From Eledone cirrhosa (taxonomy: Eukaryota), in NCBI GenBank assembly GCA_964016885.1, contig OZ024741.1, positions 303,924,001 through 303,988,000 of the forward strand: DNA of 64,000 nucleotides, read 5' to 3'. Of the stretch, positions 10,801 through 64,000 are shown in pieces. Position numbers and translations under genes: made by a program. How positions within the stretch are numbered: the stretch's first letter is position 1; each line of letters opens with the position of its first letter. The notes under the pieces are model-generated. The model was not told the DNA's origin and did not search any database. It saw only the letters and a program-made list of their open reading frames with translations.

Positions 10801-11651
10801 TAACTTTTTTTAGTTATTGCTCGCACCAACCTGAGGTATCTAATTTTTAATGCGATGAAATACCAATGATGGTTGGAAAATCACTGACGAAGGACTATTT
10901 TTATCATATGTAACCCATGTGCAAACCACGCAGTATTCGTCTTTCTTCTCATGTTTTTTATATATATTTACCTCGGCTGCGTTTGTCTGTTTCTCTCTTA
11001 CTGCTTCCCCGCTCTCTCTGTTTCTCTCACCTTCTTTTACCCCCTGTCAGTTACACTTTCTCTCGACTGACCTCTTCCTCACACTTCCACTCACTCACTC
11101 TCTGTTTCTCCCCTTCTCACTTCCTCCCGTTTGGCTTGTGTGGGTCTCTTCTTGCTCACATCTCACACACATCAACACGGTCTGTACCCCCCCTCGCTCA
11201 TGAAATCCTCCCAGCTTATGCTGACCGGACAACCATGTTGCCTGTTTATTTTCCTATCTTCGGTTTGCTTTTATCCTTGTATGTTGTTTACTTGTCCCCC
11301 TCGCCTTACGCGAATTCTGGTCCCAATAACTTTTTTTTAGTTATTGCTCGCACCAACCTGAGGTATCTGATTTTTAATGCGATGAAATACCAATGATGGT
11401 TGGAAAATAACTGACGAAGGACTATTTTTATCATATGTAACCCATGTGCAAACCACGCAGTATTCTTCTTTCTTCTCATGTTTTATATATATATATATAT
11501 ATATATATTAAAGAGTTAAACAAGATTCAATGAGTGCATCAAAGAATAAGTTTTACAGTAGATTGCAAGCACTCTACAGAAAAATATTTTCCAGAGTTAT
11601 TAATATTAAAATACAAATATTAATAAAATAGATGTTCTTTTGATCAATTCA

Positions 11652-11704
11652 ATTTTATTATACATATTTCAGAGGTACAACAGTACGTCCTCATCAGACA
11701 AAAT
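11652..11704 (-). ncRNA. Minimal type I hammerhead
   Basis: AUUUUGU CUGAUGA GGACGUAC-uguu-GUACCUCU GAAAUAUGUAUA|AUAAAAU. Confidence 0.7.
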
Positions 11705-11705
11705 A

Positions 11706-11897
11706 TAATTGTTTCTACTTTTGGACACAAGGCCCGCAAATACCCAGTACATTACTGGTACTTTATTTTATCGACCCCCGTAAGGGTGAAAGGCAAAGTT
11801 ATCCTCGGCGGGATGAACTCAGAATGGCAAGGGCCGTAACTCTATGCGTCAAAGCATGGCGTCCGACCCTCTACCGATACTGCCAATTCACCGCCCT
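11706..11897 (-). mobile_element. tRNA-derived SINE family B; further copies near 19215, 35520, 36290, 42895, 49375, 50965, 56660, 61145, 61305, 61535, 63605
   Basis: TGGCAGTATCGGTAG A-box, GAGTTCAAATCC B-box (intact in other copies), conserved TTTGCCTTTCAYCCTTACGGGGTCGATAAAATAAAGTACC body, AGTAGAAACAATTAT end. Confidence 0.8.
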
Positions 11898-11937
11898 TAT
11901 CACCGCTAACATCTCAGGGTATGTCATGTATCATTAT

Positions 11938-11990
11938 ATTTTGTCTGATGAGGACGTACTGTTGTACCTCTGAAATATGTATAATAATAT
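11938..11990 (+). ncRNA. Minimal type I hammerhead, inverted partner of 11652-11704
   Basis: CTGATGA 11945-11951, GAAA 11972-11975; helix I slightly mismatched. Confidence 0.65.
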
Positions 11991-12133
11991 TTTATTAATA
12001 TTTGTATTTTAATATATATATATATATATATATATATATATATATATATATATATATATATATATATATATATATATATATATATATATATATATATATT
12101 TAAAAGAATAGAGGTGTAACACACGAGTTGTGA

Positions 12134-59331: not shown

Positions 59332-59429
59332 GACTAGATAAAGTGAGGTGATTTTGATGGAATACCAGCTTTTGCTCATACATGCCAGTTTCCCCTCTCC
59401 GTACCACCGATATTGCCCAAGACAATGGC

Positions 59430-60820
59430 AGTAACTATAACAACAATAACAACAACAACAACAACAGCAGCAGCAGCAGCAAAAAAAACAACAACAACAA
59501 AAACAATAACAACGACAGCAGCAACACCAAAATCAAAAACAATAACAACAACAACGTCAACGACGACACCAACAACAACAATAACAATTACAACTACAAC
59601 AAAAATGTCATCAGCTTTAACAGAGAGCAATAACAATACAACAACAACAATAATAACATCATTATCATCATTAACAATAATAATTACAATAAAAGCATCG
59701 CCATCAACAACAATAACAACAACAACAACAACAACAACAACAAACACAACAGCAACAACAACAACAACAATGACAACAGCGCCAACAACAACAAACACAA
59801 CAGCAACAACAACAAAAATGACAACAGCACCACCAACAACAGCAACAACAACAACAGCAACAACAACAACAGCAACAACAACAATGACAACAGTGCCAAC
59901 AATAACAGCAACAACAACAACAGCAACAACAATGGCAACAGCAACAACAAAAATGACAACAGCACCACCAACAACAACAACTATAATAACAACAGCACCA
60001 CCAACAATTACAACAGCAACAACAACACCAACAACAATAACGACAACAATGACAACAGCAACAACAACACCAACAACAATAACGACAACAATGACAACAG
60101 CACCACCACCAACAACAACAACAACACCAACAACAACGACAACAGTAACAACAACACCACCAACAACAGCAACAACAACAACGACAACAGTAACAACAAC
60201 ACCACCAACAACAGCAACAACAACAACGACAACAGTAACAACAGCACCACCAACAACAGCAACAACAACACCAACAACAACAACGACAACAGTAACAACA
60301 GCACCACCAACAACAGCAACAACAACACCAACAACAACAACGACAACAGTAACAACAGCACCACCAACAACAGCAACAACAACACCAACAACAACAACGA
60401 CAACAGTAACAACAGCACCACCAACAACAGCAACAACACCACCAACAACAGCAACAACAACACCAACAACAATAACGACAACGGTAACAACAGCACCACC
60501 AACAACAGCAACAACAACACCAACAACAACGACAACAGTAACAACAGCGCCAACAATAACAGTAACAACAACAAACAACAGCAACAACAACAACAACAAC
60601 AGTAACAACAACAAACAACAGCAACAACAACAATGACAACAACAGCAACAACAACAATGACAACAACAGCAACAACAACAATGACAACAACAGCATCAAC
60701 AACAATGACAACAACAGCAACAACAACAACAACGACGACACGACGACAACAACAACAACGACAACAGCAACAACAACAATGTCAACAGTGCCAACAACAA
60801 CATCAACAACAACAATAACC
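59430..60820. repeat. (ACA)n-derived compound minisatellite with a 54-bp higher-order unit
   Basis: Repeats translating as TTVTTAPPTTATTTPTTT near 60230-60420. Confidence 0.9.
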
Positions 60821-62762
60821 ACAGATGGGATGTTATTAAAGTAGCCAGCCCCAACCGTCTGCTGTGTTCCCATATAGTACTGATAAGTAAGTATGTGTTT
60901 AAATGGCGAGGCAGACACTTGTTGAAGTCATCGCCACAATGACATGTGAGATACTTGTAATATTGAGGTGCTGAGTACTCTCAGCTCCCATATAATGGGG
61001 GTGGGGAGAAGTCGGGTGCGGGTGGAAAATCGATAATATTTCTAGCTATCCTAAGGTATCTTCTTCTCCTTCTTTTCTTCTTTTCTTCGACTTTCCCCTC
61101 TCCTTCAAATTTCTGGCCTTGTGCCTCAAGTAGAAACAATTGTTGGTTGATTGGCAGTATCGGTAGAGGGTCGGACGCCATGCTTTGACGCATAGAGTTA
61201 CGGCCCTTGCCATTCTGAGTTCAAACCCCGCCGAGGTTAACTTTGCCTTTCATCCTTAAGGGGTCGATAAAATAAAGTACCACTAATGCACTGGTGAATT
61301 ATTATGGATTGGCAGTATCGGTAGAGAGTCGGACGCCATGCTTTGCAGCATAGAGTTATGCCCCTTTGTGGTCTGACTTCAAATCTCACCGATGTATGTG
61401 GGGCCCTCCAAACCTGAAATGCTCCTCCCCCATCGAAGGTCTAAATCCAACCCTGGACACTACCAGTGTTAAAATGTGCAAGAGATATCGTATGTCACTA
61501 CTGTGACCCTACAACTCCACAACATTATTCAACTCGGACACCATGCTTTGTAGCATAGAGTTATGACCCTTTATGATCATAGTTCAAATTCCGCCGAGGT
61601 TAACTTTGCCTTTCATCCTTACGGGCTCGATAAAATAAAGTACCAGTAATACACTAGGATAATTACTGGCCTTGTGCCAAAAGTAGAAACAATTATTATT
61701 CCCTTCTTCTTCGTTTTCTTTATCTTCTTCTTTGACCACTTATTCCTGACAGGGTCGTGGGGGCAGGGCCCTCAAACACTCCTTCCAGCGAGTCCTGTCA
61801 GAAGCAACCACCTCCAACTGATCCGGCTAGATCGCCAAGCGTGAACAACCATCTTGTTCGGGGTCTACCCCTTGGTCTCCTAAAGGAATCCACAAACTGT
61901 ATAAAACCTGTACCACATCAAACTGTATTAACATAACATAACTGTATTAACATAACATTCTTGAAAAGTACAAAACAACATATGACTTCATCACATACTC
62001 TCGGGTCCCAAATAGGGATTTGAACTCGGAGGGATTTGAACTCAGAATATAAAAAAAATACAGAATAAATACTGCAGTTGGGTCTCTCTCTCTCTCTCTC
62101 TCTCTCTCTCTCTCTCTCTCTCTCTCTCTCACACACACACACACACACACACACACACACACACACACACACACACACACACACACACACACACACACAC
62201 TTCCTATTTTTTAGAAGAAATCGGTTGTGTTCATACCTGGAGAGGGATAACGCCAATATGACCCATAAATACATACATACATATATACATACATACATGC
62301 TTACATACATACATACATACATACATACATACATACATACATACATACATACATACATACAGTGGCGGACTGGCCAGGTCGTCAGCTTGCTTGATGGCAA
62401 GTGGACCCCTCAGGGGTCCACGGTAGTACTTTAGGAGCCAATACAAAAACGTTACTTTCAAAGTAAATATCAGAAGTCTTAAACAAAGAATAAAAAAATT
62501 AAGAAAAACAAATACAATAATTAAGCATATTATGGTCGACTTTTACATGAGTTTTAGTATATATATATATATATATATATATATATATATATATATATAT
62601 ATATATATATATATATATATATATATATGTAGATAAATCTACCAAGAGTTTACGGTAGTGTCCAATCCGTATGAAGAACTCAATGTATTCCGGATATCAT
62701 GGAAAGAAGAGATGCAATGAAAAATCACTTTCGGTGAAAGATAAACGGAATACAGAGTCAAG

Positions 62763-63126
62763 ATAAAATATTAAAAAAATAATGAATAAAACAATGAAAC
62801 AGTTCCTTATATTAAACAAAAAAAGTTCATTATTTAACGATCGTTTCTAGGATATATATGTGTTAGAATTGGCATGCATATTCAACTATGTACAAAATTA
62901 TACAAAATTATACAAACTATCAAGATGGCATATATGTGTGTTTGGTATGTATATTTAATCTTGATAGTTTGTATAATTTTGTATAATTTTGTACATAGAT
63001 CTGTTGAATATGCATGCCAATTCTAACACATATATATCCTAGAAACGATCGTTAAATAATGAACTTTTTTTGTTTAATATAAGGAACTGTTTCATTGTTT
63101 TATTCATTATTTTTTTAATATTTTAT
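62763..63126. repeat. Inverted repeat, arms about 165 bp with a 31-bp spacer
   Basis: 62763-62926 versus 62958-63126; contains GAAACGATCGTT. Confidence 0.9.
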
Positions 63127-63302
63127 ATATATATATATATATATATATATAAAAGAAATAGGATTTATCTTCAAGCATAGCTTTATACAATATGTATAAA
63201 TATTTCGTATCTCCAAAGAAATACGGTTTTAGGAAGCCGTAGCTATGCAAACAACGGCGGGCTAACGCCCTCCGGTGATGTCCAGCAGAAGCACGGGGGA
63301 CA

Positions 63303-63346
63303 ACCGTCTATGCATTTCAGGCTTAACTGGCCATCGTCAGGACGGT
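63303..63346 (-). ncRNA. Minimal type I hammerhead ribozyme
   Basis: ACCGUC CUGACGA UGGC-caguuaa-GCCU GAAAUGCAUA|GACGGU; 6-bp helix I; palindromic AUGCAU helix III. Confidence 0.8.
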
Positions 63347-64000
63347 CCCTCCCACAGCTTGCGACTGCTGGACTAGAAGACAAGCGAGAATATATAGTTT
63401 TCTCGTCTGTGTACATATTGTATAAAGCTATGGTTGAAGCGAAATCCTATTTCTTTTATATATATATATAATATATATATATATATATATATATATTGTT
63501 ATACTTTGGGAGGGTCATGCTACCAATAAAAACACACACACCTGTTGGTTTTCACTTCAATTCATTATAAATGTATGACAAAGTTCCGGTTGGTTGGCTG
63601 GTTCGTATTACTGGTACTTTATTTTATCGACCCCGTAAGGATGAAAGGCGCAGACCGTACATAGAAAATGCGTGCAGAATATATATAAAAAAAGAAGGAA
63701 TGTGTATGCATATGAGATAGTCCACAAAAGAAGTATGAGATACACACGTGGGTCTGTATACGGAAAATACATGAGGTGTTACAAAATGGAATGCATGGAG
63801 AGTATGCACTCTCTGCTGAAAAGATACACATGCAGGGGGGTGCGTGGACAGGCCATACTGGAGTATGTCACTGTGGTTGAGGTATAGTGTCTTATTGGTG
63901 TAAGGCACTGAACTGAATATCAATGGAATCCAGGTCAACCTGTCCCGGCTCAGACGATGTTTTTGCCTAGGGTGACGTGCAGAGTCGGGTAGGCATCCTG

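Follow-up and report, generated by a model that had tools for sequence, protein, structure and literature searches.

Type I hammerhead motifs in Penelope-like and retrozyme-like elements of a 64-kb stretch and a genome sample of Eledone cirrhosa

The window analysed in this study is a 64,000-nt stretch of contig OZ024741.1 of Eledone cirrhosa, and eleven hammerhead motifs were found in it (Table 1). A preliminary description had named ten cores and a decayed motif at 25931-25966. All ten cores were found in their places, the coordinate given for each being the low end of helix I, and the decayed motif has proved to be a decayed member of an old family with 42 genome matches, itself included. 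Six copies appear to be intact (11652, 11938, 17444, 20156, 20619 and 63303) and four are damaged; helix I measures 2 bp in 19100 and 33846, a deletion leaves it at 3 bp in 46612, and 24130 is without helix I, its palindrome being broken relative to its parent. Motifs 11652 and 11938 form an inverted pair and motifs 20156 and 20619 a tandem, each pair being a single insertion, so the eleven motifs represent nine insertions, and these fall into six families, close to the earlier estimate of about six. Pfam gave no match for the GIY-YIG fragment of the window. A 15-nt array in the window swamps the repeat finder.

Table 1. Hammerhead-bearing insertions and related features of the window
Feature	Position	Strand	Hammerhead core	Remarks
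Family A insertion	11509..12011	.	11697-11659 (-); 11945-11983 (+)	Two 5'-truncated end-pieces head to head, SINE-like repeat between, (TA)n both sides; 40 best genome copies 96-100% identical
Family A' stub	17402..17588	-	17500-17452	End-repeat of Hydra-clade PLE; 50-nt tail ends at (TA)n; inverted piece at 5' end
Family B stub (old)	19000..19212	+	19105-19167	Helix II long, helix I decayed; other copies 71-89% identical
SINE-like repeat	19214-19330			Directly after family B stub
Family C	20087..20767	-	20700-20624; 20237-20161	About 1.5 head-to-tail copies of non-coding 463-nt unit, probably retrozyme-like; 3' end fixed 75 nt past cut; (TA)n both sides
Family D	23145..24255	+	24136-24163	5'-truncated 3' UTR and end-repeat of autonomous, probably Neptune/Nematis-type PLE; minimal hammerhead, damaged in window copy
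Family F	25860..26040	-	25966-25931	Decayed minimal hammerhead; old family; tail ends at (TA)n
Family B stub	33836..33978	+	33851-33929	Helices I and II decayed; sense strand of Ptf1a-like intron
Family A' insertion	46392..46719	+	46621-46669	Inverted piece 46392-46542 and stub 46544-46719; helix I shortened; sense strand of Ptf1a-like intron
Decayed RT-end/GIY-YIG fragment	48557..49199	-		Neptune/Nematis-type PLE; 64% DNA identity to family D parent
Family E	63152..63412	-	63340-63309	Truncated copy of non-coding 321-333-nt unit; 6-nt palindromic helix III; inverted piece at 5' end; (TA)n both sides

The type I descriptor (CUGANGA, helix II, GAAA, helix III, UH) recovered nine of the ten named motifs, 33846 being missed because its helix II base has decayed. 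It gave 9 matches of any kind in the window, 8 with a score of at least 12 and 6 with a helix I of at least 4 bp, as against means of 1.2-1.5, 0.06-0.08 and 0.04-0.05, respectively, over 300 dinucleotide shuffles of the window (100 global, 100 in 500-nt blocks and 100 in 200-nt blocks). A strict three-helix test was passed by six window copies and partly by three more, and a relaxed-core scan of the window has shown no additional credible motif. The Rfam hammerhead models gave no match in the window at gathering score; below this score only microsatellite-driven miRNA matches were obtained, with no hammerhead among the best 150 of 272 weak matches. The hammerhead is absent from the minimum-energy folds of 20156 and 20619. 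The window motifs are confirmed as real type I hammerhead folds.

In a genome sample of 138 stretches (1.38 Mb), 153 strict matches were found, which corresponds to 111 per Mb (95% interval 85-143), and the same tier gave 1, 2, 2, 2 and 1 matches in five shuffles of the sample and 1 in the reversed sequence. Extrapolation from this 1.38-Mb sample gives about 330,000 strict motifs in the genome. The comparison with dinucleotide-shuffled sequence, proposed earlier as a check, has shown a shuffled density far below the observed one in window and sample alike, and the claim of a large genome-wide hammerhead load is borne out. For the density, given with it as one motif per 6 kb, the sample yields about one per 9 kb by the strict tier and about one per 7 kb by the excess of all matches over shuffles.

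A constant core with differing helices had also been claimed, and compensatory helix II changes around an invariant core were indeed observed in 32 copies of family A/A'. Both sides have changed in seven of nine helix II pairs and in one of eight helix I pairs, helix III being invariant. The covariation score of this alignment, which is enriched for copies found by the descriptor, was reached by none of 500 shuffles; the count of pairs changed on both sides was not beyond the shuffles (38/500). As helix II covaries across subfamilies, the fold appears to have been kept by selection at the source loci.

The suspected link to Penelope-like elements (PLEs) is supported by hammerheads at a fixed place behind PLE frames in families D, A' and a further family of the sample (family 2), and for D and A' a frame with RT and C-terminal GIY-YIG is present upstream of the hammerhead repeat. 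Family D ends a 4,705-nt unit with an 815-823-aa frame of RT, linker and GIY-YIG; its window copy has 82-84% identity over 1.1 kb to L131, L132, L133 and L135 and 74% to L134. The frame of this parent (P0001) contains a CX2-5CxxC linker and a CCHH endonuclease and gives only a sub-threshold RVT_1 match in Pfam, and helix I of the parent is only 2 bp. The parent is probably a Neptune/Nematis-type PLE, belonging to one of these two clades. Four motifs share homology with a Hydra-clade PLE end-repeat. Family A' sits 1.0-1.7 kb behind a CxCX5C-linker endonuclease (L310/L043, L311/L034, L142, L181 and L190), and the P0192 and L310 frame, of which the copy analysed is 5'-truncated, has the CxCX5C linker, no CCHH, CxxC/CxH and the (TA)n target described for the Hydra clade (Craig et al. 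2021, PMC8557442). Subtype A may have the same kind of parent, to which it is linked by hammerhead homology only. This Hydra-linked hammerhead family is the commonest in the sample (34 of 153 strict matches), and at six loci a third PLE frame is followed, after 200-212 nt, by sample family 2.

A' was rejected as a small stand-alone element, since its long copies run up to the PLE frame; in L142, the PLE frame just downstream of the motif is a separate neighbour and the parent frame is upstream. No parent PLE frame was found upstream of B (within 1.5 kb), C or E, and the search for a parent ORF of family F reached 0.5-0.6 kb. PLE coding DNA within 2.5 kb upstream of 164 matches lay on the same strand in 17 and on the opposite strand in 12, a count that is not informative compared with the fixed distances. 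Truncation at the 5' end, partial tandems and inverted 5' pieces occur, as in EN+ Penelope-like elements. The families had been called unrelated small elements; this does not hold for A/A' and D, which are stubs of multi-kilobase autonomous PLEs, and the mobilisation system that appears common to the families speaks against unrelatedness.

The family C unit (463-486 nt, GC 0.36-0.37) and the family E unit (321-333 nt, GC 0.42) are non-coding, and both families have one type I hammerhead per unit, head-to-tail copies and GC below 50%, which are the characters of non-LTR retrozymes. From their sequence, C and E are probably non-LTR retrozyme-like elements in partial tandems. Folded as circles, their units are more stable than shuffled sequence (z -3.7 to -4.9), and the circular fold of the 287-nt A' unit is no better than shuffles (z 0.0). 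The repeated parts within one family C insertion were discordant at 5 of 56 subfamily sites as against 46% between insertions; discordance within insertions of E (16/33) and A' (2/5) resembled that of between-copy pairs. A 310-nt 11-unit array was found at L188.

All motifs had been said to lie near (TA)n tracts, and the association is real and one-sided, being downstream of the cut. A tract was present within 200 nt downstream in 94 of 134 matches (random 21-28%) and within 100 nt upstream in 2 of 134, and the core is upstream of the tail site in 170 of 197 sites from 11 families. The 30 family C copies selected by their tail alone all extend across the cut site, 24 ending in (TA)n at +75 and 6 continuing into the next unit, which fits a circular or uncut template. 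In family A/A', eight sampled copies have a 5' junction 1-13 nt before the cut; these could come from some linear cut templates, or simply from TA microhomology.

Dimer cleavage of small PLE hammerheads was reportedly observed by Lunse et al. The palindromic mini helix III noted earlier was recovered as a self-complementary, hairpin-unstable helix III in A/A', B and E (hairpin +2.4 to +6.0 kcal/mol, self-duplex -2.2 to -9.5). Helix III of the family D parent is at -1.7, and the window D copy does not have such a helix III. The family C hairpin is stable at -2.0 and, helix III being a stable 4 bp, a dimer should be unnecessary in this family. Among 164 sampled matches, 95 are solo, 43 in inverted pairs and 26 in same-strand tandems, so dimer cleavage can concern few copies and is not sustained as a general mode. 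Of nine Xenopus dimers, one cleaved in vitro (bioRxiv 10.64898/2026.07.22.740005).

The explanation which we consider probable is that type I hammerheads lie in the 3' end-repeats of several PLEs and in small non-coding units for whose copying the same enzymes are likely responsible, and that insertion at (TA)n likely proceeds by target-primed reverse transcription. The template RNA is predicted to be cut into unit lengths by the hammerhead and is likely joined into a circle again. The hammerheads are likely to cut the element RNA during copying. A source locus with two same-direction hammerheads would be transcribed, and the hammerheads are predicted to release a single unit, acting as dimers in families whose helix III is a short palindrome and as monomers in family C, whereupon a host ligase may close the unit, to judge from PMC7229834. 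The PLE endonuclease would nick (TA)n and the nicked end would prime within the unit, at TA-rich sequence 50-160 nt past the cut; the junctions of this step are observed and its chemistry is what we infer from them. The RT would then copy back through the cut site and either stop early, flip, or circle more than once, and solo stubs, inverted pairs and partial tandems are the products seen. Most genomic copies would be dead single stubs in decay.

Some of these observations do not discriminate in favour of a circle; E and A' lack concordance within insertions, and the A' unit has no special circular fold. The 2-bp helix I of the family D parent, the minimum-energy folds of 20156 and 20619 and the single cleaving Xenopus dimer also count against the explanation. 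Cut-site read-through and subfamily concordance would also be expected if the same elements used the same route with an uncut linear tandem transcript as template, the hammerhead cutting rarely or only trimming. We regard this as unlikely, even though minimal PLE hammerheads are poor cutters in vitro (PMC4209133) and Naiad PLEs, which lack canonical hammerheads, also produce such tandems and inversions (PMC8557442). The helix II covariation across subfamilies argues against it. So does the form of C and E, which are closed sequence loops carrying a single hammerhead in each unit; circles are made from units of this kind in mussel, coral and axolotl (PMC7229834).

The mobilisation of C and E by a PLE is predicted, and these families might instead be by-products of autonomous PLEs, either satellite-like or stubs, with a coding parent that was not found, as A' also looked small at first and proved to be a PLE stub. 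At L102 a Neptune-type frame directly adjoins a family E copy, and the best 25-55 loci per family were read. This origin is nevertheless improbable, because the sequence upstream of the C/E hammerhead returns to its own tail, the copies are dispersed over many chromosomes, and the PLE-protein matches in C/E loci (L009, L057, L062, L075, L078, L079 and L302, among 106 family loci) lie in the flanks, at varying places and from three PLE types. Chance matches in AT-rich repeat DNA would be suggested by the loose descriptor tier, which gives 29-40 matches per 1.38 Mb in shuffles, and by the silence of Rfam; such an origin has practically no credibility in view of the strict-tier excess, the multi-copy families, the covariation, the fixed place at PLE ends and the presence of helix I, which the descriptor does not require.

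The motifs resemble the minimal and small-palindrome hammerheads of PLE pseudo-LTRs (Cervera and De la Pena 2014, PMC4209133) in the type I fold within an end-repeat and palindromic helix III, in the extra base after A9 and very short helix I (here D and F), in the mostly solo copies of truncated PLEs with inverted pairs 100-700 bp apart, and in the many consensus families per genome; the circular-template model was already proposed there. The counts were 2,000-9,000 per genome there, with a different descriptor, whereas about 330,000 are estimated here, and A/A', B and C have long helix II extensions. Similarly, non-LTR retrozymes (Cervera and De la Pena 2020, PMC7229834; Li, Clavereau and Pollet 2026, bioRxiv 10.64898/2026.07.22.740005) are non-coding low-GC units with one type I hammerhead each and partial tandems, in genomes also holding autonomous PLEs, as for families C and E. 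The family C unit exceeds the 170-400 nt of PMC7229834 and is within the 51-972 bp of the preprint; the copies here are mostly dispersed, under two units, and have a fixed 3' end at (TA)n.

Hydra-clade PLEs (PMC8557442) share the C-terminal GIY-YIG, the CxCX5C linker, the absence of the CCHH pair inside GIY-YIG, CxxC and CxH near the end, the hammerhead and the (TA)n targets. They were described as generally under 3 kb with few families outside cnidarians, whereas here the 3' UTR alone is 1.0-1.7 kb. The family D parent agrees with Neptune/Nematis-clade PLEs (PMC8557442) in the RT, CX4CxxC linker, GIY-YIG with two inner cysteines and two histidines, partial 5' repeat and (TA)n at the 3' end, and differs in a 1.4-kb C-rich 3' UTR and a hammerhead with 2-bp helix I. 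The kind of element is already described (PMC4209133, PMC7229834, bioRxiv 10.64898/2026.07.22.740005), and the scale, the Hydra-clade parent and the junction data are new here.

A wider reading can be offered as a tentative possibility, on balance doubtful: the hammerhead load of this genome may rank among the highest so far counted in any animal (at least 250,000-430,000 motifs, about 25 times the axolotl density), with a Hydra-clade PLE in the lead and with retrozymes that are actively circularising. On this reading, reverse transcription would roll around circles after priming at an internal TA site and leave its trace in the insertion junctions, and introns would have been cleared of intact copies on the sense strand, since these cut the pre-mRNA of the host. 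We would guess that PLE stubs or retrozymes account for some of the 'unclassified SINE' families of related genomes. What PLE hammerheads do was regarded as unclear (PMC8557442). This genome, with its roughly 100 motifs per Mb from dozens of families that differ in age, permits two tests for which small sets do not suffice. One is whether the insertion junctions trace a circular template, and the other is whether intact motifs are depleted on the intron sense strand, which, if true, would imply cutting in vivo. The genome also makes many natural variants available for ribozyme work.

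The preliminary description had claimed at least ten hammerhead motifs, and the motifs of the window are real and well above chance. Of the ten listed, 9 were recovered by a descriptor of the type I fold, which requires the core, helix II, GAAA, helix III and UH and counts helix I in the score without demanding it for a match; the missed one, 33846, was found to be a decayed relative of 19100. A score of at least 12 was reached by eight window motifs against a mean of 0.06-0.08 in 300 shuffles, and six had 4 bp or more in helix I against 0.04-0.05. With motif 25950, from an old family showing core changes or no readable core in five of six fetched relatives, the 11 motifs represent nine insertions and six families (see table). 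The claimed number of about six families stands; their description as small does not hold for all, since subtype A' and family D have long parents among the Penelope-like elements (PLEs). The window, at 303924001-303988000 of its contig, is part of a microsatellite-rich genome of 3.0 Gb.

Hammerhead families and other features of the window (motifs are named by their low coordinates; 25950 is the decayed motif at 25931-25966)
Feature	Window positions	Strand	Family 3' end site, nt after cut
Family A/A' (two subtypes)	11652+11938 (single inverted pair), 17444, 46612		A': about +50 and +135
Family B	19100, 33846		
Family C	20156+20619 (single tandem)		+75
Family D	24130		about +95 to +110
Family E	63303		about +100 and +155
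Family F	25950		
Ptf1a-like bHLH gene, two exons	32434-33163, 49782-49955	+	
SINE-like repeat, eight places in total	19214-19330, 11777-11885 and six others		
Long LINE, endonuclease and RT frames plus upstream frame; L1/Tx1-like by eye	830-6100	-	
Several pieces of a single restriction-endonuclease-type LINE, resembling R4/Dong by eye	14647-15946, 38317-38784, 41261-41853, 43494-45252		
Perfect hairpin repeat of about 100 nt, MITE-like, commonly beside (TA)n	7640-7745, 25724-25839		
Array of 15/18-nt units, 3.1 kb	27501-30665		
29-nt minisatellite, 22 copies	26047-26672		

Both motifs in the 16.6-kb intron of the Ptf1a-like gene (33846 and 46612; two cases only) lie on the sense strand with a damaged helix I. 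The named relatives of this gene are almost all from molluscs. Some R4/Dong-like fragments stand as long inverted pairs. The SINE-like repeat frequently adjoins hammerhead stubs and has 164 matches in a 1.38-Mb genome sample; ARAGORN called no tRNA in the window.

This sample was drawn from the large contigs only, as evenly spaced 10-kb stretches, 138 in all (140 requested, two absent). The claimed large genome-wide load was borne out, with 153 strict matches (all three helices), where five block-shuffled versions gave 1, 2, 2, 2 and 1 and the reversed sequence gave 1. The strict density is 111 per Mb, with a bootstrap interval of 85-143, and drops to 101 when the richest stretch is left out; the window, with six strict motifs in 64 kb, is typical. 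Extrapolation from the large-contig sample gives a genome total of about 330,000 strict motifs (250,000-430,000), a lower bound because short-helix motifs such as D and F escape the descriptor. A similar density is possible for the Sm-alpha family of Schistosoma. With other descriptors, 126,247 motifs were reported in axolotl (28 Gb) and about 5,000 in mussel (PMC7229834), and in Schistosoma, coelacanth and Xenopus the minimal motifs numbered 2,000-9,000 (PMC4209133). The 164 sample matches passing either filter and the 11 window motifs form 41 clusters, A/A' being the largest (34 of the 153 strict matches). Solo motifs account for 95 of the 164, inverted pairs only for 43 and same-strand tandems for 26, of which 11 are one array. 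At locus L188:281-3381 (minus strand), 11 hammerhead units are spaced 310 nt, a classic retrozyme or satellite array of a type absent from the window; loci L133 (8 matches), L194 and L179 hold more families, whose tandems of about 470-635 nt cluster in the vicinity of PLE copies.

Covariation was examined in A/A', using four window copies and 28 of 30 distinct sample copies, two with large length changes being excluded. Pairing was found in 95% of cells, and both partners vary in seven of the nine pairs of helix II. The covariation score was matched by 0 of 500 shuffles and the number of such pairs alone was equalled in 38, figures which kinship and the descriptor both inflate. These changes indicate, at the level of sequence, that the hammerhead structure is selected. 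The palindromic helix III noted earlier was also seen widely, being self-complementary and unstable as a hairpin in A/A', B and E, and fully self-complementary in 105 of the 164 sampled matches; family C differs in having a stable 4-bp hairpin.

Window positions 23145-24255 (family D) resemble the 3' UTR of long PLE copies, with 82-84% identity to four and 74% to a fifth. At locus L131, two copies of the D hammerhead 4,705 nt apart flank an 815-aa frame, and at L132 an 823-aa frame carries RT, a CX4CxxC linker and GIY-YIG; relatives of the D-parent frame have RVT_1 domains, often with GIY-YIG too. Long A' copies reach, 1.7 kb upstream, a frame with RT motifs whose CxCX5C linker, CxxC/CxH motifs and lack of a CCHH pair are, judged by sequence, the marks of the Hydra clade. 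This link recurs in the unselected sample (L142, L181, L190 and L223), and the endonuclease of the A' parent has at least 150 genome copies at 81-100%. A third PLE frame lies 200-212 nt upstream of the hammerhead of another sampled family (sample family 2) in six loci. Units of C (463-486 nt) and E (321-333 nt) loop back on their own sequence without a coding link; first-look candidates genome-wide number at least 2,206 and 2,125, respectively. Family B copies have a long pyrimidine-rich upstream region in common, and B is probably an old PLE end. At L102, a Neptune-type PLE frame runs straight into a 5'-truncated E copy about 300 nt past the GIY-YIG match, with no PLE 3' UTR between; this single case is possibly a template switch linking E to that PLE. 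At L036, a 287-nt short A' form makes up a tandem whose units come from two subfamilies, with (TA)5 at a junction, and may be a retrozyme arising from the Hydra-clade parent.

The claimed proximity to (TA)n extends to the sample. Among 134 matches away from stretch ends, (TA)5+ was found within 200 nt downstream of the predicted cleavage site (the cut) in 94, and 2 had it in the 100 nt on the upstream side, the background being 21% at random positions and 28% within the same stretches. Each family terminates at a fixed TA-rich site of its own sequence, or at either of two such sites. Of 40 matches listed in a search with the 75-nt C tail alone, 30 were read (some from the same insertion, two in the window); all 30 extend through the cut, 29 by at least 73 nt and seven by more than one unit, on a length measure that may run too far where TA repeats follow. 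Their tails end in (TA)n in 24 cases and continue into the next unit in six. Across 11 sampled families the core lies upstream of the tail site in 170 of 197, a few sites being counted twice; 16 misses fall outside A/A', and in 15 of these family sequence can be followed by eye across the cut. A/A' is the exception: in eight copies the 5' junction precedes the cut by 1-13 nt, within the TA-rich helix III. In tandems, repeated parts inside one C insertion are discordant at 5 of 56 subfamily sites, and in inversions at 8 of 83, vs 46% between insertions, a contrast found in neither E nor A'.

The hammerhead fold, its location, the A' and D parents and the insertion junctions were observed, and the following mechanism can be proposed around them. 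A two-hammerhead source locus would be transcribed, the hammerheads would cut the transcript and the cut unit would be ligated into a circle. The PLE endonuclease would then nick (TA)n, with priming from an internal TA site of the unit and copying across the re-joined cut. In the main rival explanation the template is the uncut tandem transcript, which accounts for the junctions nearly as well as the circle. A circular template has been proposed in the literature on PLEs, whose end-repeats carry hammerheads (PMC4209133).

The hammerhead biology of window and genome all fits described systems, and the element is of a known kind. Retrozymes are known in animals (PMC7229834) and have been given a PLE origin (bioRxiv 10.64898/2026.07.22.740005), while (TA)n targeting and inverted 5' pieces are described for PLEs (PMC8557442). 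Penelope elements are listed in two papers on cephalopod repeats, neither of which has the word 'ribozyme' in its main text (PMC13282606, PMC8967140). Our literature search found no hammerhead survey of any cephalopod; supplements and subscription papers may hold cephalopod counts. A finding of this size could not have been established from the window by itself. New here are its scale, the Hydra-clade parent and the statistics of the junctions; they would interest specialists and make the role of PLE hammerheads testable.
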